This document shows positions 3,506-45,220 of a stretch of 45,220 nucleotides of DNA, piece by piece. The notes beneath the pieces were generated by a model that ran no database searches, had not been told where the DNA came from, and worked only from the letters and a program-made list of their open reading frames with translations. Source of the stretch: a virus; IMG/VR virus record IMGVR_UViG_3300010354_000006; one strand, given 5' to 3'. Position 1 is the first letter of the stretch. Each line of letters opens with the position of its first letter. Position numbers and translations under genes: made by a program.

Positions 3506-3795
3506 AAAAAGTAAGAAAAGTTAATCTAGAAATCGGCTCAATAGAAAAGTATCAAAAAAACAATAAGCTACCTGATAATTTTTTGACGATTTTAATTGCT
3601 AGGTACAAAGCAGGAGAAATTAAACCTGTATACAAAAAAATTGAAAAACAAAACAGGAAGACTCACGGACTAACAGCTACTAACGATGAATGGTGTTTTC
3701 TAAAAATGGAAGCTCTTAGAAAAGGGGTTAAAATTGGGGGAGAGGGAGCTGCTGGAATCATTAGGGCTTTAATTAATGGGGATGCAATCGAATGA
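3502..3795 (+). CDS. Hypothetical protein (97 aa)
   Basis: ORF track; overlapping start/stop. Confidence 0.45.
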   Translation: MKKVRKVNLEIGSIEKYQKNNKLPDNFLTILIARYKAGEIKPVYKKIEKQNRKTHGLTATNDEWCFLKMEALRKGVKIGGEGAAGIIRALINGDAIE

Positions 3796-9310: not shown

Positions 9311-9616
9311 TTACCTTTCTCTCTGTCTTTCTTCTTTTAAAAACTCTTTAAAATTATCCTTAAGCTCATTTAAAGCAGCAATAACCATGCGAAAATTCTC
9401 TTCAATTTTAATTGTTGATTTTTCTAAGCCTTTAATATCTTTGCCCTGTTCATCAGTCCTAACTTCTAAAGCTAAAATCTTTTTATCTAAAACTTTTAAT
9501 TGTGGCTCTATGACTAAGTTGTAAAAAATAATAAGTACAGTTAATTCACCACCAATGATTGAACCAACAAGCATTAACAATTCATAGGATTTAAAGATGT
9601 ACTCTGTTTCCGTCAT
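9311..9616 (-). CDS. Membrane-anchored coiled-coil protein (101 aa)
   Basis: N-terminal hydrophobic helix then charged helical region. Confidence 0.45.
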   Translation of the reverse strand: MTETEYIFKSYELLMLVGSIIGGELTVLIIFYNLVIEPQLKVLDKKILALEVRTDEQGKDIKGLEKSTIKIEENFRMVIAALNELKDNFKEFLKEERQRER

Positions 9617-12772: not shown

Positions 12773-13555
12773 ATGTCTTATAATAAGAACATGAGTTTAT
12801 CTAACCTGTTAGACAAGATAAAAAAAATCCCAGTTCTTAAGAAAAACGAAGAAGAAGAGTTGGCTTCTTGGTTTAATTCCAATGAATTAGCAAGACCAAT
12901 TTATGAAAAGATTTTAATTTATCATAACTTAAGATTGGCTAGGCATATTGCAAATAGATTTATAGACAGGGGTTATGAGCTAGAAGATTTAATTTCAGAA
13001 GCTGTTACAGGTTTAAAGCGTGCTGCTGAAAAGTTTAATCCAAAACTAGGCTATAGATTTAGCACTTACGCTGGGCAATGGATTAACCAACGAATCCAAA
13101 AGTTTATTCAAACTTCTTCAACGATTAAAATTCCCGTATTGAAATATTACGCAATTCAAGAGCTGCATAGCCTACTTAATGTTGAACCACTAGAGACTAT
13201 TAGAGAAAAATTAAAGCTTTCAAAAAATCAATTTAATAAATTATACCAAGCCTACTCAAGCCAATTAGTTGAGTCTATAGATGTACCTTTGAATGACCAT
13301 GAATTAATTAAAGAAAGTATCCCTTTTGCCTCAAAAGAATATGATGATCTTTCGGAAAATTTAGAATACTTCTTATCTCAAATCCCCAAAGATGAATACC
13401 CTATAGTCCTAAGTTATCTAAATCAAGAGTTTACTAAAAATAAACTATGCGAAATTTATAACTTAACCTTTATTGAATTAAATCAAATACTGAACCGCAA
13501 TGTAACCTTCTTAAAAGAATCTTTGCGAGGGGATTACGAAGCCTTAAGACTTTGA
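12773..13555 (+). CDS. Sigma-70 family RNA polymerase sigma factor
   Basis: Region 2 signature ...AAEKFNPKLGYRFSTYAGQWINQRIQKFI... (FSTYA.WWI.Q consensus) and a C-terminal helix-turn-helix-like segment. Confidence 0.75.
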   Translation: MSYNKNMSLSNLLDKIKKIPVLKKNEEEELASWFNSNELARPIYEKILIYHNLRLARHIANRFIDRGYELEDLISEAVTGLKRAAEKFNPKLGYRFSTYAGQWINQRIQKFIQTSSTIKIPVLKYYAIQELHSLLNVEPLETIREKLKLSKNQFNKLYQAYSSQLVESIDVPLNDHELIKESIPFASKEYDDLSENLEYFLSQIPKDEYPIVLSYLNQEFTKNKLCEIYNLTFIELNQILNRNVTFLKESLRGDYEALRL

Positions 13556-16852: not shown

Positions 16853-19800
16853 TTAATAGCCTCTCAACTCTGCAAGTTGTTTTTCTCTCAATTTTTTCTC
16901 TTTAGCTGCTCTGTCTTTTTGCTTTGCTTCAATCGCATTTTCATATTGCTTTCTACCAGCAGGACTCCACGCATATAATGTTTTACCAGCGATAGGAATA
17001 TTATTCACTAAAATCCTAGACAAGAAAGGATTATATTCTTCGCCTGTATCTACTGCCTTCCTGTATTCTTTTACATCGGCATCTAACGCATCAAGCCATG
17101 GAGCTGCAGGCATAATAAAGCTTCCAAACCCTGCCGCTAAACCTTGCTTATCTAACTTGTAAAACATATAAGGATTTACTATTGGTATAAATGTTTGAAA
17201 AGCTGCCTCAACCGCTCTCTCTTCTAAAGATTGATATTCTTCGCTTGTTTTTCCTTTGATTATATCTTTAAAATAATTAATTCCATAGTTTGAACCACCA
17301 ACTAAAACACTAAGAGCAATAGCGTTTCTTAGGGATTCGCCTAATTGTTTAGTGTTTTGTTTGTTTAATCCTTTAGTTGCAATAGATTTAATCCCATTTG
17401 CCATACCACTGTAGACTTCATCTTTAGTGAATTGAAGCATTTTTAAACTAAAGCTTTTTAACGCATAAAAGAATCTTAGGTCTGGAGCTTGTAAGTATCC
17501 AGCAGGCATATCGCTTAAAGATAAAACTTGCGTTCCTGAAAGGCGTTCAAATAAAGCAAGCCCAATGCTATCATCGTCATACGCTTCTTTTAAATCTTTA
17601 GTACGAAAAGCTTGTACCATTCTATCGGCTTCATCTACCCCGAACATGCTTTTTAAATAAGAATATTCTTTATCGAACTTCGCACCTTTTTCTTTTGTAA
17701 AAACATTTTTAAAATAATTAAATCCTGCATTTAACTGTGTTTCTTGCATTAATTTATTCGCTGCCCTAAAACCGTTTATCTTCAAAGCAAAATCAACAAC
17801 TTTACGAACCACGGAAGGATTATCAGCATAATCCGCACCGATACGGGCAATGCCTAAGTCTAAGGTTTTTACAGTCTCAGGGTCAAATGATTGCCCTAAA
17901 CCTTTAATAGTATTCAAAATACCATTCCTATAAGCACTAGTGCCAAGCTCCGTAGCCTGTGTTATTGTACTTTGAATATCATTCAGAGCAGTAAGCAATG
18001 CTCCGTCTTTAGCTAAACGAGCAAAATTAGCTGGCTTTTTAGGACCATTAACAAAACGTGCTGTAAGTAAATCCTTAACCTTAACAACTTGTTCACTTGA
18101 GATTTCATTGTTTTGTCTTAGACTATCTGTAAAAGCACCGACACTTGTAGTTAAATCTGCACCATCCGCTCTACCAAAGAATTTACGACTCTCTATGTCA
18201 AAAGTAGAGCGATTAATATAATTCTCTAATACTGTAGCTGGGTCTTCGTATAAGTCAGAAAGAAAACGCTCGTTCCCTTTAGCATCCTTAAAAATAATCC
18301 CTTCCATCTGTTGAGCCAATCCCGATCTAGGTTTTCTGTTAGAAAGTGTTGGGGTGCTGCCTACTCCACCGTAACCTCTTAAAAACTTATTAGTAAACTC
18401 AATTCGCTCTAGCTCCTCAAGTTCACGCCCAAGTTTTTTTCTTTCTTTAGCTAAAGCTGTATCGTATTCTGTCCTTGTTGCTGGATCAGCTTTTAAATCA
18501 TCTGTGATTTTATCTAAATCAAAAAGTGAACGCCAAGTCTCAACGCTATCTTTTTTAACACTTGTTGGGAAATAATTTTCAATAAAACCTACTTCAAGCC
18601 CCGCTTCGGTTTGTTGTGCATAAAGATCATCAAGGACAGGTCTAACCCCTGTTTCGTATAGTTCCGTTAAAGGTTTATTTATTAATTTCTCAAAATCTCT
18701 TGCGGTGTCTTCCGCCTCTAAAAATTTTAAAGGTACTTTAAATATTGGTGGCAGTTCCTTAAACTGTCGCCCTTCTTTATCAATCTTAGATAAGAAAGCC
18801 ATGATTGCATCATGGTCGCCTTTAATTAAATAAGAGTTAAAAATTTTCTTTTCATTTTTGCTTAATAATTTCCCTAACTTGCTGAATAAAGGCATTGCTT
18901 GAGATAAATGTTTATTTGCAATTTTTGAACTTGCAAATTCAAACTTGCGAAGCTGCCCTGCTAAAGATGGGTTAATGTCTCTTAAAGCTGATATTATTGG
19001 TTGTACTAAAGTATTCCATAAGTTCCCCGCATTTTCAGCAGTTTGAATAATTTTGTTTTTAGGTTTTTTAGTTGCAGTTGGCATTTCCACAGAAGCATCA
19101 CTAATGAAAGCTCCAGTATTTTCAACTTCCGCTTTCCCTACTTCACTTTTCATTTTTGCTATTAACGCTGGATGGCGGTACATCGCTTTATACATATCGT
19201 TTAAAGCTTCTTTTTCTAATTCAGCTCTTGAGATTGTTTTTTCTTCGGTCTCTATAATCGGGTTGCGTTCTGCCTTAAGCTTTGCTAACTGAGAATCAAT
19301 TTGATCTAATTCCTCTTTAGCAATCATTCGATCAATTTCGATATCATCAGCATTACGCAAAACAGGAGTCTCTATTCCCATCTTCTCTCTGTATTCTCTT
19401 AAAGCATCTTTCTTAAATTGACGATTTAAAGCTACTTCTTTTTGTTTCTTTAATGCCTCTCTACGCCTATTTAAATAATCTATCTTATCTTTAACTTCCT
19501 GCTCAAGCTTTTGCTGTTGCTCTAATAAAGCTTGTTTCTTGGCTTGAAAGTCAGATACAGCTTGATTTCTATTTGCATTAGTTACACTAAGCCTAGTATC
19601 TACATCTGATCTAGCTGCATTGTATTCGTCATCTAATGCTTTAAGTCTCTGTTCTTTAAGTTGTTGCTTTTGTAATTCTATGTCTTGCAAACGCTTTGTT
19701 TCTACATCTGCTTTTAATTGATTTATTTCAGCTTGCTTTGCTTCTAATGCTTGTTGTTGTTTTGTCTTTACAGTCTCTATTTGCTTTGCTACTGTTTCTT

Positions 19801-22468
19801 GTAGTTTTTTTAATTTCTCTGGGTAAGTTTTATTTTTAAATTTATTTAATTGCTCTTGTATTTTATTTCGTTGTTCCTCTGCTTTTTTTAAAGATGGGTT
19901 ATCTAAAATAGGTTTTAATGATTCTTTTTGCTGTAAAAGAGATTCAAGGTTTGCTTTTTCTTCTTTTAGCCCCGATTCAAGTTTTCCAATCTTTTCTTTT
20001 GCAAAAGATTTAATATTCGCTATCTTTTTTTGAGTTGCTTCTTTTACTTGATATTTATATTTACCAAGTGCAATGTTCGCCGTTTTAATACTTGGGATTG
20101 CATTTAGCTCTTCTTGCGTTAAAGACTCCCCTGATTTACTACGCTTATCTCGTCTTTTTTGTTTTAAAGCATTAACTTTATCTTCTTGTGCTTTTAATTG
20201 TTGCTCTGCTTTAGTTTTTACTACTTCAATTTGACGATTAGCCGTTTCGTTTATTTCTTTTAATTTTTGTGCATAAAGTTTTTTAGAAGCATCTAGTCTT
20301 TTTTTTGTTGCAGTTATTATTTTCTCTGTTTCATCAAATTTCTCTAACGCCCCTTCTTGCAGGAAATCACGTTTAATTTTATTGTAAGCAATATCAGCTT
20401 CCTCAGAAGCCTCTTCTAATTTTTGCAATTCAAGCTTTAAGGCATCAATTTTTTTTGTTATAAAAACTTTAATATTTTCAACCTTAGTTTTAACTTCGGA
20501 ACTTAAATCTTTTTGAAATTTGTTAAATGAAATTTTATAAGTAGGATCAAGTTTATTTAATTGCTGTTCTGCTAATTCTGTTTGCTTTGCCTTTAAACTT
20601 TTTTCAAAATCAGCTTGAGATGCCGTTAGTTTACTAGCGACCTGCTCTTCAGTTTGCTTAACTGCTTGAGAATATTGACCTTCTAGTTTTTGATTGTTTC
20701 TTTCTAAGCTTTGTAATCTATTTTCAAAATATTGCTTAACTCGTTTTGCTTTTTTTTCTTTACTTACCGAGTCTGGTAAGTTATTAATTTCATCAAGCGA
20801 TTTAGAATACTCTGCTTTAGTTTGTTCAATTTCACGTGCGTAAGATTCTTGCTTCTGTTTAAATTTAATATCAAGTTCTGCAATTTTTGTTTGCCTAGAT
20901 TCTTCTAGCTGAGTTTTTAAACTTTCGTATTTAGTATTTGTTTCTTTTTGAAAAAGATTAAATTCTTCTTCGTAATTTCTTTGTGGTGCCGTTGCTGTTT
21001 CTTGGGAAACAGTTTCGGGAGTTTCAGTGATTTCTACAGGCTCCGTCTCAGCTTGTTTTTTAGCACGTTGATAAGAGTCATTAACTTGCTTCTGTTGTTT
21101 AGCTAAATTCTTTTCTTCTAAATCAAATGGCTTAGTTAATGTACGCTCTTGCTTGTCTATATCAGCTTTCTGTTTAAGCAGGTTTTTTGTTTTCTGTTCA
21201 CTTTCTCTTTGGATTTCAGATACTAATTTATCTTGCTCTGTGTCTATCTGCTTGAAAGCTGTTTGCTTTTCAGCTTCGTACATCTCATTTAAAGTAGATA
21301 CATTCTGCCTAGTCTCTTCTTTAAGCCCTAAACGTGTTTGCTCTTCTGCTAATTGCCCTTGCCTTTGTTCTGTCAAAGACCTAGCTTGCATTAAATCAGA
21401 TTCAATCTTTTCGTATTTTAATGCTGCTGCTGCTTTTGCTTCTTCTGCTGCCCTTGCTTCGTTAGCACCTTTAGCCTTGTATGCTTCTACATTACGTCTA
21501 TTAAATGCTCTTTTTGTTTCAGCTATACCCTTTAAAGATTCTTTACTATTGCCCCTAAAGATAAAGCCTTCTTGCCCTTGAGCCATTCTGCCCGCTTCTC
21601 TTAAAGCTTGCTTGCCGTAATTTTTGGTTAGTGCTGCTCCAATACCTTCTATCGCTCCACCAAACGTAGTATCTATAGCTAAATTTAGAGCTAAGTCTTT
21701 AAGGTTAATGTTCCCCTCTTCGTCCATTGAAGCCGAGAGAGACAATGGAGAACCTGCTATTGTGTTAGCTGCTGCACCTGCTATAAATCTTTTAGTTCCT
21801 GCTTGTGCTATAACTTTTTTAGTTGCTTCTCGTGCTGCTGTGCCTGCAATCCCTTTAGCTGTTAAATCTTTAAATATGTTTGCCGCTAAAGCACCTTCGC
21901 TAGCTGCTCCAAAAGCTTTAGCATAAATTGACCCACCTCCGAGTAACCCAACTACTGTACCAAGTCCAGTAGGTAAATCTTGGAATCCTTGCCCTTCTTG
22001 TATCCCTGTAACATCACTTGCTAAATCTTGTATGAATTGACCAGTTTGAGCTAGACCTTGAGATACAGGGTCTAACTCTCTCTTAACCCTCTCCCTGCCT
22101 GCAAAAGTATCCATCATTAATTCTGCTGGAGATGGAATAGCTTTAGATGCTCCGTATAAAGCTTTAGGAGCTTCTAACATTAAAGCTGGAATCTCTGCTG
22201 CTGATTTAAGCCCTGCTGCTATTGTCTTGCCAGCTATAGGAATGCTTTGTATTGCATCTGCTATGGCTTTTTTTGCATAAGCTCCTGAATTGATACGGTC
22301 AGGGGTTAATTTGCTTGCTGCAAATTGTAATTCATCTGGAGTTAATTCACGTCCAATATCGTCTTGATAACGAGTTAAAGCTGCCTCTGTGTATTTAACA
22401 GCCTGATCTTTTAAAAGTGGATTTATACTTTTAGCTTTTAAATCTTCAATAAAATTTTCAATTCCCAT
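16853..22468 (-). CDS. Very large virion protein (1871 aa) with long central coiled coil; internal/ejection protein or tape-measure-like
   Basis: Uninterrupted 5.6-kb ORF; central Lys/Glu/Gln-rich heptad region. Confidence 0.55.
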   Translation of the reverse strand: MGIENFIEDLKAKSINPLLKDQAVKYTEAALTRYQDDIGRELTPDELQFAASKLTPDRINSGAYAKKAIADAIQSIPIAGKTIAAGLKSAAEIPALMLEAPKALYGASKAIPSPAELMMDTFAGRERVKRELDPVSQGLAQTGQFIQDLASDVTGIQEGQGFQDLPTGLGTVVGLLGGGSIYAKAFGAASEGALAANIFKDLTAKGIAGTAAREATKKVIAQAGTKRFIAGAAANTIAGSPLSLSASMDEEGNINLKDLALNLAIDTTFGGAIEGIGAALTKNYGKQALREAGRMAQGQEGFIFRGNSKESLKGIAETKRAFNRRNVEAYKAKGANEARAAEEAKAAAALKYEKIESDLMQARSLTEQRQGQLAEEQTRLGLKEETRQNVSTLNEMYEAEKQTAFKQIDTEQDKLVSEIQRESEQKTKNLLKQKADIDKQERTLTKPFDLEEKNLAKQQKQVNDSYQRAKKQAETEPVEITETPETVSQETATAPQRNYEEEFNLFQKETNTKYESLKTQLEESRQTKIAELDIKFKQKQESYAREIEQTKAEYSKSLDEINNLPDSVSKEKKAKRVKQYFENRLQSLERNNQKLEGQYSQAVKQTEEQVASKLTASQADFEKSLKAKQTELAEQQLNKLDPTYKISFNKFQKDLSSEVKTKVENIKVFITKKIDALKLELQKLEEASEEADIAYNKIKRDFLQEGALEKFDETEKIITATKKRLDASKKLYAQKLKEINETANRQIEVVKTKAEQQLKAQEDKVNALKQKRRDKRSKSGESLTQEELNAIPSIKTANIALGKYKYQVKEATQKKIANIKSFAKEKIGKLESGLKEEKANLESLLQQKESLKPILDNPSLKKAEEQRNKIQEQLNKFKNKTYPEKLKKLQETVAKQIETVKTKQQQALEAKQAEINQLKADVETKRLQDIELQKQQLKEQRLKALDDEYNAARSDVDTRLSVTNANRNQAVSDFQAKKQALLEQQQKLEQEVKDKIDYLNRRREALKKQKEVALNRQFKKDALREYREKMGIETPVLRNADDIEIDRMIAKEELDQIDSQLAKLKAERNPIIETEEKTISRAELEKEALNDMYKAMYRHPALIAKMKSEVGKAEVENTGAFISDASVEMPTATKKPKNKIIQTAENAGNLWNTLVQPIISALRDINPSLAGQLRKFEFASSKIANKHLSQAMPLFSKLGKLLSKNEKKIFNSYLIKGDHDAIMAFLSKIDKEGRQFKELPPIFKVPLKFLEAEDTARDFEKLINKPLTELYETGVRPVLDDLYAQQTEAGLEVGFIENYFPTSVKKDSVETWRSLFDLDKITDDLKADPATRTEYDTALAKERKKLGRELEELERIEFTNKFLRGYGGVGSTPTLSNRKPRSGLAQQMEGIIFKDAKGNERFLSDLYEDPATVLENYINRSTFDIESRKFFGRADGADLTTSVGAFTDSLRQNNEISSEQVVKVKDLLTARFVNGPKKPANFARLAKDGALLTALNDIQSTITQATELGTSAYRNGILNTIKGLGQSFDPETVKTLDLGIARIGADYADNPSVVRKVVDFALKINGFRAANKLMQETQLNAGFNYFKNVFTKEKGAKFDKEYSYLKSMFGVDEADRMVQAFRTKDLKEAYDDDSIGLALFERLSGTQVLSLSDMPAGYLQAPDLRFFYALKSFSLKMLQFTKDEVYSGMANGIKSIATKGLNKQNTKQLGESLRNAIALSVLVGGSNYGINYFKDIIKGKTSEEYQSLEERAVEAAFQTFIPIVNPYMFYKLDKQGLAAGFGSFIMPAAPWLDALDADVKEYRKAVDTGEEYNPFLSRILVNNIPIAGKTLYAWSPAGRKQYENAIEAKQKDRAAKEKKLREKQLAELRGY

Positions 22469-41618: not shown

Positions 41619-41756
41619 ATGACAATATTCAAAACACAACACGATTTAATGAATGATGAGTATTACTTAGAGATACTGGGAATTAGAGTATCCAATGCGA
41701 TAGCTAATTTCTTGGTTAGATTAGGAGTTATTCAAGAGAACGAAAATATTTAGAGC
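41619..41756 (+). CDS. Small hypothetical protein (45 aa), below the ORF-track cutoff
   Basis: ATG directly after element B copy 3. Confidence 0.25.
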
Positions 41757-41790: not shown

Positions 41791-42054
41791 ATGGTATACA
41801 AAATAGACGAAAAAGAAAACTGTAAAGTTAGAGAAGTTTCTGAATATTTAAGTCGTAAGGGTTACGACAAGGGAATTAACCCTAAATTTAAAGTAGGGGA
41901 TGTTATCCAGTTCCTAACTGGTTATGATTATAACATTCTCGCTGAAGCCAAGATTAAGGGTATAAACGGAAATGATTTATATGTTTACAATGATGCTTAT
42001 TGGTTCGCGATTCAGGACAATGAGCAAAGGAAAATAAAAATCATTCAAGCTTAA
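41791..42054 (+). CDS. Hypothetical early protein (87 aa)
   Basis: ORF track; AAAGGAAA RBS. Confidence 0.4.
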   Translation: MVYKIDEKENCKVREVSEYLSRKGYDKGINPKFKVGDVIQFLTGYDYNILAEAKIKGINGNDLYVYNDAYWFAIQDNEQRKIKIIQA

Positions 42055-42057
42055 ACC

Positions 42058-42147
42058 CAGCCAAAATTTTTAATTTCAGTTGCCTGTATTATAAAGGCAA
42101 CTGGTTCTGATGGTAAAACAAATGACAACAGCCAAAATTTTTAATTT
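42058..42147. repeat. 19-bp perfect direct repeat CAGCCAAAATTTTTAATTT (42058-42076 and 42129-42147) with an 8-bp stem hairpin between (42077-42084 / 42096-42103)
   Basis: Read directly. Confidence 0.8.
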
Positions 42148-42293
42148 TGGAATAAAGTTTTAATTCCCTCGAATAAGGGGGAATTAAAAGCAGTCAAGTA
42201 ATCCTTGACAGCTCAACTATTCGAGATTATCGAATACTTGGATAATCAAGCCTAGAGCTACTATCATTAGGTTGAGTAATCTAGAGTAAATAG

Positions 42294-42577
42294 TTTTCCG
42301 TCTTTTCCGTCATATCTTTTTACTTTCCGTCAAAATGACGAAAGCTATAATACAAGCCTAGTCCGCCTATCCAGTCTTTTCCGTCTTTTCCGTCATTTCC
42401 GTAATGAATAAGTGAAGTTATAAATAATAATATATATATACATATTGATTAATTATTTCATTTATTTATTTTTCTAGACGAAAATGACGAAATGACGGAA
42501 AAACTCTCGATAAGTATACCTAGTCTATATTATAGAGTCCGTCAAACTATGACGGAAAACACTCAAATGACGGAAAA
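42294..42577. promoter_or_regulatory. Putative origin of replication: TTTTCCGTC iterons (42294-42302, 42303-42311, 42323-42331, 42377-42385, 42386-42394), AT-rich core (42411-42476), inverted GACGGAAAA iterons (42494-42502, 42551-42559, 42569-42577)
   Basis: Read directly; lies in an 800-bp ORF-free region upstream of the helicase gene. Confidence 0.6.
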
Positions 42578-42727
42578 CTAGAAACAGATGAGCAAGCTAG
42601 TCAAATATCCTGCAAGCTCGACAGAGCAGCTCGTAAGAGCGGGGGTATTTAAGTTGCGGCTCAACATAAAAACAAATTAAACTAATTACTAAGTTACTTG
42701 TTAGATAAATCTGATATATATATAAGT

Positions 42728-42853
42728 ATGAAGAAATCGGGATTAAATATCCACCTGGAAACAATAGAAAAGCTGAAAGAGTTTAAACCAAGTGGTGTAA
42801 CTTGGGATTATTTTTTATTGGAGTTGCTGAAAGCTTGGGTAGCTAAAGGTTAA
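42728..42853 (+). CDS. Small ORF (41 aa), possible ribbon-helix-helix-like regulator between origin and helicase
   Basis: ATG to TAA read directly; no clear RBS. Confidence 0.25.
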   Translation: MKKSGLNIHLETIEKLKEFKPSGVTWDYFLLELLKAWVAKG

Positions 42854-42857
42854 TCGA

Positions 42858-44600
42858 ATGAAAAATGAACAAGCTTTATTGGGTGCTATTCTTCAGCACG
42901 CAGAATGTAAGTATTTAATCTATGAATTAAAAGCTGATTATTTTTCAAATGACGATAATCGCAAAGTCTTTTTAGCTATGCTGGCATTGCATAATGCTAA
43001 TGAACCTATAGAAATATTCACAGTTAAAAGCAAGGTAGAAGAACTAAATTATTCTGATCTGCTTGGATACATTGAACTATTAAGAGACGTAGCAGATATT
43101 CCATCTAATGTTAGATTCACTCTTAAAAGAATTTTCAAGGCATATAAAGCTAAAGAAGAAAAAAGAATTAAAAGCGAAATAAAATTTCACCAAGATGATT
43201 TACCCAAAGTTCAATCCTTAATTCAAGAGTTTAATGAGCTTAACAAATTAATCGCATTAGACGAAATTAAATTACTCGGTAAAAACAAGGAATCCCAAGC
43301 TCAATTTTGTTTGCAGGATATACTGCCATCACCATTATATGCCTATCTATATGGCATTTCCTCAGTTCCATACAAAGACTTCCCAGTAGAAGCAGCATTC
43401 AGTTTATTTCTTTCCATAGTGGGCAGTCTAGCGGGTACTAAATTCACTATTTCACACCGAAGACACAAAGAACATGCTTTTTGGTGGTCTATGGTGGGTT
43501 TACCCGTAGGATCAGGCAAAACACCTATCTTAAATAACCTAATGAAGCCCTTAACAGTCTTGCAGTACGAAGCTTTAGAAGTTTATAAACAGCAGCTTAA
43601 AGAATTTCAAGAAGTTAAAAAGAAAAAGAAAAAAGATACTTCTCTTGAGGAATTTCAAGAGGAATTACCAGAACCTAAAAGAAAAAGATTTTATTTATCT
43701 GATTCAACAATGGAGACTACATTGAAAGCTCACTCAGATAACCCTAATGGGCTTTTATGGGTCAAGGATGAGCTTAAAGGTCTCTTTAATTCTCTTGGTG
43801 CTTATAAGGGTGGACGGGGAGAAGATAAAGAAACATTACTGTCACTAGGTGCAGGTACTTTTATTTCAGTAGCTAGAAAAGAAACAGATATTGAACTCGT
43901 CAAATCGGCTATTAGCCTCACTGGTGGGATTCAACCTCAAGTATTAAAAGATTTATATTCCAAAGATGGAGATAAAGATAACGGCTTATGGCAGAGATTC
44001 GCCTATATTATCCACGAAACAGTATCAAGAGAAAAAAACCCAGACGATGTAGTCTTAAATGATTCGATATTAACTAAGCTCTATTCCCATATTATTAGCT
44101 CAGAGGGTGCTAGCTTAGTCTTTGCTGATTATGATTATGTCGAATGGGTATCAGATTATTTTAATGAAGAGATAGATAAAGCTCCAACACCAGCAATGCA
44201 AGCATATTACACTAAATGCTTTGGGTTTTTCTTAAGGCTTTCTATTTTGTTGCATATTCTTGATTCGCACTTCTCTTATCTGTCTTACGATAGACCAGTT
44301 AGCAGAACTACCAGCGAAAATGCTTTTTCCTTAATTGTGGCTTACATTTCCCATGCTGAAAAACTATTTTATGTTAAAACCATCAAAAGCAAAGATCAAC
44401 AATTTATCAATAAAATTCTTGATAAGCCTTTAGCTAAAAGAACAATTAATGAAATCGCTAAAACTATTACTCAACGTGTTGATAAACCTTCTGATTATGC
44501 CCGCTATCTATTTGAGCTTATGCAAGAAGCAGGCTTAGGTACTATCAACAAAACCAACGGCAAAAACTGGCAATTCGCTTTAAAGGGAGAAACAATATGA
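42858..44600 (+). CDS. Replicative helicase / replication initiator with DnaB-like N-terminal domain and Walker A P-loop
   Basis: N-terminus NEQALLGAILQHAE...FSNDDNRKVFLAML...EPIEIFTV matches DnaB N-terminal pattern; P-loop VGLPVGSGKTPIL. Confidence 0.55.
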   Translation: MKNEQALLGAILQHAECKYLIYELKADYFSNDDNRKVFLAMLALHNANEPIEIFTVKSKVEELNYSDLLGYIELLRDVADIPSNVRFTLKRIFKAYKAKEEKRIKSEIKFHQDDLPKVQSLIQEFNELNKLIALDEIKLLGKNKESQAQFCLQDILPSPLYAYLYGISSVPYKDFPVEAAFSLFLSIVGSLAGTKFTISHRRHKEHAFWWSMVGLPVGSGKTPILNNLMKPLTVLQYEALEVYKQQLKEFQEVKKKKKKDTSLEEFQEELPEPKRKRFYLSDSTMETTLKAHSDNPNGLLWVKDELKGLFNSLGAYKGGRGEDKETLLSLGAGTFISVARKETDIELVKSAISLTGGIQPQVLKDLYSKDGDKDNGLWQRFAYIIHETVSREKNPDDVVLNDSILTKLYSHIISSEGASLVFADYDYVEWVSDYFNEEIDKAPTPAMQAYYTKCFGFFLRLSILLHILDSHFSYLSYDRPVSRTTSENAFSLIVAYISHAEKLFYVKTIKSKDQQFINKILDKPLAKRTINEIAKTITQRVDKPSDYARYLFELMQEAGLGTINKTNGKNWQFALKGETI

Positions 44601-44998
44601 ACGACCTAGCAGAAATCCAAGCAGAACTAAAAGAACTCCATCAAGAGTTTTTAGATTACGCTGAAAAAATTAAAGATGTTAGCCGTAGACTAGGCTTACT
44701 GGTCAAAGATTCCGATAACGCTATCCTGAAATGGCAAGTACACCATTACTGGCTAAACAATGTTGATCGCAAATTTAAAATCCTAGACGAAGAGCTAGAT
44801 AATGAGATCGCAGCTCCATTTAGTGCTTTACCACCAGTTACAGCAAACCCTATCTACAAGGACTTAACCCTTAAGATCGAGGCTTTCAGGCTCTTGAATC
44901 CTGACATAGATGAGCTAGAAGCACAAAAGAGAATTTCTAAGATCGTTAAAGAGCATGTCCAAAGCAGAAGGCACAAGCAGGGAGAGGAAAAACAATGA
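44597..44998 (+). CDS. Hypothetical protein (133 aa)
   Basis: ORF track; ATGA overlap with helicase stop. Confidence 0.45.
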   Translation: MNDLAEIQAELKELHQEFLDYAEKIKDVSRRLGLLVKDSDNAILKWQVHHYWLNNVDRKFKILDEELDNEIAAPFSALPPVTANPIYKDLTLKIEAFRLLNPDIDELEAQKRISKIVKEHVQSRRHKQGEEKQ

Positions 44999-45081: not shown

Positions 45082-45186
45082 ATGAACGAACTAGAAGAAT
45101 TAAAAACAGTGCAATTAATTATTAATTTTGTCGTAGTAATAGCTATCCTAGCTGTAGCCGTAACAGTTGGGAGGTACTTGGGATGA
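45082..45186 (+). CDS. Small membrane peptide (34 aa, single predicted TM helix); stop overlaps ATG of the 65-aa ORF (equivalent to 86..283)
   Basis: AAGGAAAAG RBS; hydrophobic core IINFVVVIAILAVAVTV. Confidence 0.3.
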   Translation: MNELEELKTVQLIINFVVVIAILAVAVTVGRYLG

Positions 45187-45220
45187 GAGAATTAGACCGC
45201 CAAAAATGGCTTCCAGTGGA
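45098..45220. repeat. Second copy of the 123-bp terminal direct repeat
   Basis: Exact match to 1-123. Confidence 0.9.

Follow-up and report, generated by a model that had tools for sequence, protein, structure and literature searches.

A candidate theta-type replication origin upstream of a DnaB-N/DUF3987 helicase gene in a tailed phage without close database relatives

The repeat array upstream of the helicase gene

The IMG/VR virus record IMGVR_UViG_3300010354_000006 is a stretch of 45,220 bp, which we refer to in its entirety as the window. Its first and last 123 bp are identical (1-123 = 45098-45220), which makes it a complete genome of 45,097 bp, circular or terminally redundant, and this genome is that of a tailed phage. 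Our subject is the DNA that leads up to a plus-strand gene for a 580-aa helicase, at 42055-42857, where a first-pass annotation, made from the letters alone, had placed an iteron-type replication origin. The iterons, the AT-rich core, the inverted copies, the 19-bp repeats, the hairpins and the helicase gene that it listed are all found where it put them. It had also described this 800-bp region as free of open reading frames (ORFs), which holds for 42055-42727, all of it non-coding, but not for 42728-42853, which is taken up by a conserved 41-aa gene. The repeat array occupies 42294-42577 and is made up of the following features (site orientations are given as forward or reverse):

42294-42403, plus strand: left arm, seven sites, with CG-core positions that are invariant in a 7-sequence alignment
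42294-42302, forward: site I1, TTTTCCGTC
42303-42311, forward: site I2, TTTTCCGTC
42323-42331, forward: site I3, CTTTCCGTC
42337-42344, reverse: site I4, GACGAAAG, forming a small palindrome with I3
42377-42385, forward: site I5, TTTTCCGTC
42386-42394, forward: site I6, TTTTCCGTC
42395-42403, forward: site I7, ATTTCCGTA
42404-42476: AT-rich core of 73 bp (~90% A+T), a putative DNA-unwinding element, containing ATATATATATACATAT
42477-42577, minus strand: right arm, six sites, aligning as the reverse complement of the left arm
42477-42485, reverse: site I8, GACGAAAAT
42486-42493, reverse: site I9, GACGAAAT
42494-42502, reverse: site I10, GACGGAAAA
42537-42543, forward: site I11, GTCCGTC, forming a palindrome with I12
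42551-42559, reverse: site I12, GACGGAAAA
42569-42577, reverse: site I13, GACGGAAAA

Exact copies of TTTCCGTC lie on the plus strand at 42295, 42304, 42324, 42378 and 42387, with a one-mismatch copy at 42396, and on the minus strand at 42494, 42551 and 42569, with a one-mismatch copy at 42477. Eight of the nine exact copies in the 45,220 bp fall within these 284 bp, where 0.006 would be expected (Poisson probability of eight or more, 6e-23); the lone outsider is at 9607. When the core is relaxed to T(Y)CG plus two nucleotides, the motif being 6-9 bp long (TTTTCCGTC), the array comprises 13 sites, with a spacing of 8-9 bp between neighbours. Six of the seven sites in the left arm are forward and five of the six in the right arm are reverse. 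The dyad centre, at ~42440, coincides with the middle of the AT-rich core, and the end of I7 and the start of I8 are each exactly 37 bp away from it.

The symmetry is not confined to the sites. When the left half was aligned with the reverse complement of the right half it scored 43, as compared with -19.6 +/- 8 (maximum 9) for 500 random genome segments, and the mutual reverse complementarity of the arms extends into the non-repeat spacers (e.g., CTATAATA…AGCCTAG), so that the two arms make up a 290-bp imperfect palindrome. As single-stranded DNA, 42290-42582 folds into one long hairpin (z = -9.6). A search of Rfam returned no RNA family, only sub-threshold matches to microRNA precursors, which are due to the long palindrome. 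The core between the arms has the lowest nearest-neighbour duplex stability in the genome, whether computed over 40, 60 or 80 bp, and also the genome's highest AT content over 70 bp.

An array of this kind could conceivably be a set of transcriptional operators that control the operon of the small gene and helicase, or an early switch, without any origin being involved. The array is intergenic and upstream of that operon, it includes the palindromic pairs I3/I4 and I11/I12, a candidate small regulator is encoded alongside, and in pRN1 a small repressor gene precedes the replicase gene (PMC4234260). However, 13 sites across 284 bp, split by a 73-bp core of ~90% A+T, is the wrong layout for an operator, and that core is the most meltable site of the genome. 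Moreover, the array ends ~150 bp before the small gene (42577 vs 42728), our scan found no plus-strand promoter-like site in between, and scans of the window revealed no repressor-like gene. We therefore consider the operator explanation very unlikely.

Conservation among metagenomic relatives and gene content of the phage

A blastn search of 50,697 phage records gave no nucleotide match for the window, and a protein search of the same records gave remote matches only, with no close relatives. The identical helicase is found on the IMG/VR contig UViG_3300010370_000070, and relatives of the helicase from metagenomes form a graded series of 96% to 54% identity. Upstream DNA was recovered for nine of these relatives (the P0015 contig was left out, as its upstream side was too short), and all nine have, upstream of a small ORF and the helicase, an AT-rich core between two opposed repeat arms. 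The array has this layout upstream of the orthologous helicase in L002, L004, L005, L010, L013, L014, L017 and L018.

The CG dinucleotides of the sites are invariant columns in the seven-way alignment. What follows them is not, and four lineage-specific forms of the motif can be told apart (…CGTC, …CGTA, …CGCA and …CGCC). The bases after CG are TC at 11-12 of ~13 sites each in the window, L018, L002, L017 and L004, TA at 11 of the 12 sites in L013, CA at 12 of the 14 sites in L005, and CC or CT at 10 of 13-14 sites in L010 and L014. Judged from these alignments, a parallel change at ~12 sites per lineage goes beyond what common descent of neutral DNA would produce. Since the dinucleotide changes in concert within each lineage, the array appears to be matched to a binding protein that is lineage-specific and hence encoded by the phage.

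The same pattern bears on the idea of an oriC-like origin dependent on host DnaA, with the 9-mers serving as degenerate DnaA boxes. By the generally known consensus, TTTTCC fits the first six positions of weak DnaA boxes, and the CA-type repeat, TTTTCCGCA, fits TTWTNCACA at eight of nine positions, in a motif that is itself 9 bp long. On the other hand, position 7 is an invariant G in every lineage where DnaA boxes require A, and positions 8-9 differ between close relatives although DnaA boxes are near-universal. Furthermore, there is no TTWTNCACA in 42055-42857, and the four in the whole window are below chance expectation. A DnaA-dependent origin is thus highly improbable.

One distant homologue, a DnaB-N plus DUF3987 helicase with 29% identity to that of the window, is encoded on L008 (locus at 3660-3795). 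Three exact TGAGTACA-type copies (TGGAGTACA) lie around its start codon, two upstream and one just inside the gene; their number is borderline with respect to chance, as 11 of 200 shuffles were equal or better.

Structural genes of the phage form a minus-strand block at 8.7-37.3 kb (large terminase, tail protein, head-tail adaptor and phage sigma factor). The early genes lie in a plus-strand block that begins at 39 kb, passes over the genome ends and stops at 8.5 kb; among them are those for the helicase, a lysozyme, Gp157, ERF, an HNH endonuclease, a RuvC-like resolvase and an M15 peptidase. Pfam and PHROG scans of the window ORFs found no primase, DNA polymerase, RepA- or O-like initiator, HUH Rep, ParA or integrase, and the ORF scans found no ParM. 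With these other replication genes absent, the helicase is the sole recognisable replication-fork protein of the phage.

Two further explanations can be weighed against this gene content. The first is that the array is a centromere-like partition site or a packaging-recognition site. Short arrays of direct and inverted repeats are, as is generally known, typical of some plasmid centromeres and of some sites for the small terminase subunit. Yet there is no ParA, ParM or integrase gene and no sign of a plasmid-prophage lifestyle, the terminase genes are 6-8 kb away on the other strand, and synteny of array and helicase is preserved throughout the relatives. This explanation has very little likelihood. 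The second is a rolling-circle double-strand origin, which the first-pass annotation had offered together with a theta-type one, and for which the hairpins and repeats could speak. It can practically be discounted: the ORFs scanned contain no HUH or Rep_1/2/trans endonuclease gene, the symmetric two-arm array around an AT-rich core suits the loading of two helicases and not a nick site, and a 45-kb tailed phage with a gene for a hexameric helicase is a different kind of replicon. Only the theta-type half of that offer fits the locus.

Given the array of sites, their symmetry, the melting-prone core, the concerted change of the repeats in relatives, and the neighbouring sole replication gene, we conclude that 42294-42577 is very probably the replication origin of the phage. 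The layout that had been claimed, i.e., repeats bracketing an unwinding element beside a helicase gene, thus finds support in both the anatomy of the locus and nine relatives, with the origin reduced from 42055-42857 to 42294-42577; the repeats and hairpins of 42055-42232 are accessory and do not belong to it. Nor is it an iteron origin in the strict plasmid sense: its 8-9 bp sites occur in both orientations, and the phage lacks a RepA-type gene. On the same evidence, it is probably a bidirectional (theta-type) origin that is read by a self-loading initiator-helicase, as in the Rep/ori system of Staphylococcus aureus pathogenicity islands (SaPIs).

The helicase and the probable reader of the repeats

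Between the end of the origin and the helicase start are 280 bp, which contain no gene other than the 41-aa one; the nine relatives keep this synteny. The two genes and the parts of the helicase are as follows:

42728-42853, plus strand: 41-aa gene, ending 4 nt before the helicase start, product with two predicted helices
42858-44600, plus strand: helicase, presumed initiator, 580 aa
42858-43250 (aa 1-131): DnaB-N-like domain, followed by a flexible linker
43383-44372 (aa 176-505): MCM-like DUF3987 AAA+ core
43518-43520: codon of K221, in the Walker A motif (G218-T222)
44373-44597 (aa 506-580): C-terminal winged helix

Residues 3-82 match Pfam DnaB (E = 7e-12) and residues 176-504 match DUF3987 (PF13148; E = 4e-41, 141.8 bits vs a gathering cutoff of 27). 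In a 46-sequence alignment K221 is invariant and D304/E305 are at least 90% conserved. An AlphaFold model built from 46 homologues (mean predicted local distance difference test score, pLDDT, 85.8) has a helical N-domain (aa 1-131), a disordered linker, an alpha/beta core, and a C-terminal unit of three helices and a beta-hairpin (aa 512-575). The protein has no primase domain; the DnaB-N-like domain occupies the N-terminal position, where most of 60 homologues carry primase-type domains, DnaB-N being found instead in the clade of the window.

In DnaB itself, the N-terminal domain is the docking site for DnaG primase. The helicase-binding domain of DnaG also turned up in our analysis. As the phage has no primase, recruitment of host DnaG by this domain is a reasonable idea, and by analogy with DnaB we regard it as quite possible, if slightly short of probable. 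The fusion points to a way in which an MCM-like helicase could be connected to a bacterial primase.

DUF3987 proteins are MCM-related, superfamily 6 (SF6) replicative helicases with a winged helix-turn-helix (wHTH) at the C-terminus, usually fused or adjacent to a primase (PMC4889955), and one of them is an active 5'-3' helicase (PMC11724360). In SaPI Rep, the C-terminal winged helix reads 6-12 short iterons that are opposed around an AT-rich centre beside rep (PMC9371898). The first-pass annotation had proposed the DnaB-N domain of the window helicase for a check of iteron binding; by family precedent the C-terminal winged helix is the likelier DNA reader. That the helicase is the repeat reader, through this predicted winged helix, is an assignment that we favour with moderate confidence and by analogy. 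What tips the balance is that the winged helix of SaPI Rep binds iterons (PMC9371898) and that a wHTH is general in DUF3987 (PMC4889955).

The main alternative is that 42294-42577 is an origin with another phage protein as the reader of its repeats, be it the 41-aa protein or an early protein without annotation, and that this protein then recruits the helicase. A small ORF is found at the position of the 41-aa gene in all relatives, and comparison with L002 gave 10 synonymous and 2 non-synonymous codon differences; by these measures the gene is genuine, conserved and under purifying selection, and it is tightly linked to origin and helicase. Its sequence falls into two classes (TC/TA vs CA/CC lineages), the winged helix of the helicase does not clearly co-vary with repeat type, and many early ORFs are unannotated. 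Against this, the 41-aa proteins of the window (TC) and L013 (TA) resemble one another about as much as those of two TC phages do (~73-78%, by eye), so the protein does not track the change in the repeat. It has no Pfam, PHROG or PDB-profile match, its two helices form no detectable DNA-binding fold, and the precedents of the DUF3987 wHTH and the winged-helix domain of SaPI Rep favour the helicase (PMC4889955, PMC9371898). The 41-aa protein diverges along with the origin, as does the helicase, and the TC and TA lineages are not cleanly separated by either. A reader other than the helicase is, in our judgement, unlikely. It follows that the earlier annotation of the 41-aa ORF stands as far as a real, conserved gene is concerned, while the suggested role as an origin-binding regulator has no supporting evidence. 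A ribbon-helix-helix fold for the 41-aa protein was not supported: hhalign against CopG gave a probability of 0.5%, the monomer model has two helices, and no family match was obtained.

Two neighbouring ORFs were rejected as readers on their mosaic distribution. Immediately downstream, a 133-aa ORF (44597-44998) overlaps the stop codon of the helicase gene (ATGA); all relatives conserve roughly its first 70 residues, but only some have its C-terminal half. It is 88% identical to that of L005 (CA) but 62% to that of L002 (TC). Since the helicases of the window and L005 are only 62% identical, the surroundings of the replication module look like a recombination mosaic. The 44-aa gene upstream of the origin is highly similar between TC and CA phages, as judged by eye from the translations.

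Several observations weigh against an origin read and loaded by the adjoining helicase. Two relatives of the CC lineage have an extra ORF of ~125 aa between origin and small gene (L011 350-730 and L014 1200-1590), and a direct junction of origin and helicase operon is therefore not obligatory; in SaPIs, the origin is downstream of rep and not upstream as in the window. Analysis of GC skew and cumulative skew, which had been put forward as a check, placed the turning points near 8 and 37-38 kb and not at 42.4 kb; as these are switches of gene orientation, the skew is uninformative and lends the origin no support. MCM and SaPI Reps run 3'-5' and the one characterised DUF3987 helicase runs 5'-3' (PMC11724360), so loading geometry is not simply transferable. 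With respect to the reader, the TC and TA lineages share 75% identity in the winged helix, and divergence within the helicase is greatest in the N-terminal third and not in the winged helix. A comparison of specificity-determining positions with repeat type found no domain enriched for residues that track type, four types giving no statistical power. Two anecdotal observations, again from four types only, speak weakly in favour of the winged helix: R540, which immediately precedes the predicted recognition helix, is retained solely in lineages whose repeat has C as its last base (G on the opposite strand), and the predicted recognition helix (547-560) of the CA lineage has seven substitutions of its own, within a domain that is otherwise conserved.

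Among working systems, the SaPI ori/Rep pair, and in particular the MCM-like SF6 Rep of SaPIbov1 and SaPI2, comes closest to that of the window. The two have in common an AT-rich centre with opposed repeats on either side, an origin beside the helicase gene, a C-terminal winged helix on the helicase, the lack of a loader gene, and a repeat sequence that varies between related elements. Repeat length (5-6 nt in SaPIs, a 6-nt core in a 9-bp unit in the window) and copy number (6-12 vs 13) are also close. However, no sequence homology was detected between the two proteins, whose fold similarity is only moderate, the window helicase has a DnaB-N-like N-domain and no adjacent primase gene, each arm of the window array contains a nested palindromic pair of sites, and the window is a complete tailed phage and not a satellite. 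Other DUF3987 helicases (phage N4 dns, Corndog gp and AgaPH PriCT-DUF3987) share with that of the window the Walker A and B motifs, the MCM-like core and the C-terminal wHTH. The family usually comes with a primase of the archaeo-eukaryotic (AEP) or DnaG type (PMC4889955), whereas the window has the DnaB-N-like domain and no primase anywhere in the genome.

The combination of origin reader and hexameric helicase in one protein is also known from P4 alpha, SV40 large T antigen and papillomavirus E1. The sites in those systems, such as the type I octamer of P4 and the GAGGC pentamers of SV40, are both direct and inverted, around or near an AT-rich element. P4 alpha, T antigen and E1 are superfamily 3 (SF3) helicases, unlike the MCM-like core of the window protein, and in T antigen and E1 the origin-binding domain is N-terminal to the helicase, whereas the predicted reader here is C-terminal. 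P4 furthermore depends on a second cluster of repeats, crr, at a distance of kilobases; the window genome has no crr-like cluster, only the isolated exact copy at 9607. Finally, iteron plasmids (pSC101, F, R6K and RK2) and the lambda O/ori system resemble the window in that the initiator sites are repeated, an AT-rich element serves for unwinding and the initiator gene lies alongside. Their iterons, however, are 17-22 bp long, in one orientation and helically phased, with the AT element to one side, none of which applies to the window. Plasmid iterons are read by a WH1-WH2 Rep (or by lambda O) that recruits host DnaB, and often lie near DnaA boxes, while the window has no Rep_3/RepA-like gene and the region no DnaA boxes.

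We envisage initiation by the self-loading helicase as follows. The 13 short sites (T-Y-C-G plus the lineage dinucleotide, here TTTTCCGTC) form two mirror-image arms around the putative 73-bp unwinding element, and the 580-aa protein would act as both initiator and replicative helicase. Its C-terminal winged helix would read the repeats and place one MCM-like (DUF3987) hexamer on each arm, in opposite orientations. The AT-rich core would then melt, and the rings would load themselves without a separate loader. The DnaB-N-like domain would dock host DnaG primase, and host Pol III would copy the DNA; these host proteins are invoked because the phage encodes no primase or polymerase. Synthesis by the host polymerase would proceed in both directions, and a later switch involving the ERF, Gp157 and RuvC-like genes could give rise to concatemers for packaging by the terminase.

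Flanking sequences and cyanobacterial homologues

The remaining features around the origin, together with the large terminase gene, are listed below:

42055-42232: accessory block outside the conserved origin, with two 19-bp direct repeats and five hairpins
42077-42103, 42131-42149, 42158-42189, 42193-42209 and 42220-42238: the hairpins of this left-hand block
42233-42267, plus strand: conserved block ATACTTGGATAATCAAGCCTAGAGCTACTATCA, with a weak sigma-70-like match, TGGATA-17-TATCAT
42578-42727, plus strand: non-coding spacer from origin to small gene, with GCTCGnnAGAGC palindromes and the strongly conserved TTTAAGTTGCGGCTCAACATAAAAACAAA
33760-35349, minus strand: large terminase (TerL), in the structural block

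The perfect direct repeats of the accessory block (42058-42076 and 42129-42147) are unique. As single-stranded DNA, 42055-42290 folds with z = -6.7, and five hairpins lie within 42064-42238. All of 42055-42267 is missing from L002 and L017, only subsets of the hairpins of 42055-42232 are present in L004, L005, L013 and L018, and L010 has a near-identical copy of 42129-42232. It is this complete or partial absence in several relatives that makes 42055-42232 accessory. The block looks like gene-cassette boundary material, because an extra 87-aa ORF without family match (41791-42054), after which come the first 19-bp repeat and a hairpin with 13-bp arms, is found only in the window. The segment 41791-42128 is restricted to the window and its identical IMG/VR copy, and in L004 and L005 a conserved 42-44-aa gene runs directly into the hairpin/conserved block and the origin. 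From this comparison, 41791-42128 looks like a cassette insertion with duplicated boundary sequence.

The hairpins at 42193-42209 (GTCAAG-TAATC-CTTGAC) and 42220-42238 (TTCGA-GATTA-TCGAA) have the loop pentamer TAATC/GATTA in common. Reverse-complemented loops are found on the same stems in L013 (1505-1521, GTCAAG-GATTA-CTTGAC) and L018 (2337-2385, TTCGA-TAATC-TCGAA), and in L005 and L010 the second stem is swapped for CCTGA/TCAGG. The loop reversal may reflect hairpin inversion or a protein site.

The conserved block at 42233-42267 is present in the window, L018, L004, L005, L010 and L014 and absent in L002, L017 and L013; judging by its sequence, it may serve to promote transcription into the origin or to bind a host factor. 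On the other side of the origin, the part of the spacer at 42612-42690 contains the GCTCGnnAGAGC palindrome, which is doubled in the window and L018, and an almost invariant TTTAAGTTGCGGCTCAACATAAAAACAAA. The spacer is kept in the TC and TA lineages and not in the CA or CC lineages. RNAalifold on 42578-42700 detected no covariation and gave no support for a structured RNA, and a 30-aa ORF at 42588-42680 was rejected as coding since a stop codon interrupts it in L002. The spacer probably carries the promoter or leader of the operon of small gene and helicase, for which 42612-42690 could be the promoter or operator. The region between the upstream genes and the origin has no predicted terminator on the plus strand. 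Early transcription probably runs through the origin, and that it helps to open it is speculation.

Just upstream of the origin is the 44-aa ORF mentioned above (41619-41753, MTIFKTQHDLMNDEYYLEILGIRVSNAIANFLVRLGVIQENENI), which is highly conserved in L004 and L005 and has no Pfam match. Its LGIRVSNAIANFLVRLGV resembles what we take to be a helix-hairpin-helix motif of the type in the RNA polymerase alpha C-terminal domain. Farther away, a sigma-70 family factor (Sigma70_r2; PHROG 351, E = 4e-35) is encoded at 12773-13555 on the plus strand, opposite to the structural block that surrounds it. A 1,871-aa ORF of that block (16853-22468, minus strand) has no Pfam or PHROG match, and most of the large structural proteins of the phage are without annotation.

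A search for plasmid homologues of the helicase returned 44 records, almost all of them cyanobacterial DUF3987 genes, and its sole genome match is a cyanobacterial metagenome-assembled genome. The host of the phage is possibly a cyanobacterium. On plasmid pP742403 of Gloeothece citriformis PCC 7424 (L021 1489-1660), a gene for a 1,287-aa DUF3987 protein is directly preceded by a tandem array of four to five 21-bp repeats (AAACGTTTTGGGGTTATTCGG), together with about four repeats of 9 bp (TGAATAGTT); on the Nostoc plasmid pANSO36D (L020) no clear repeat array was found beside the DUF3987 gene. DUF3987 proteins may be unrecognised plasmid replication proteins in cyanobacteria, where the known Rep, CyRepA, belongs to a different family, with DUF3854 and DEXDc (PMC10079941).

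The type of origin described here is well supported yet fairly ordinary, and current understanding is not overturned by it. Within the literature searchable to us, it appears to be the first origin proposed for a helicase of the DUF3987 family, and it provides an origin assignment for a phage lineage with neither cultured nor database relatives. With the scaffold otherwise fixed, the four repeat dialects amount to a natural experiment in the co-evolution of initiator and origin, and could be used in mapping specificity and in building compatible and incompatible replicons. The module could also supply replicon parts for cyanobacterial genetics, as the plasmid homologues are almost all cyanobacterial and one of them has a classical iteron array. 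A wider proposal, which we put forward tentatively and consider doubtful as it stands, is that the DnaB-N/DUF3987/winged-helix protein is a chimeric self-loading initiator-helicase that recognises its own origin through the winged helix and docks host DnaG through a DnaB collar domain of bacterial type, and that DUF3987 proteins are more generally the so far unrecognised initiators of many cyanobacterial plasmids and phages, each with a repeat dialect of its own. If the protein is indeed such a chimeric initiator, the four dialects would be a ready system in which to map the recognition code between protein and DNA.

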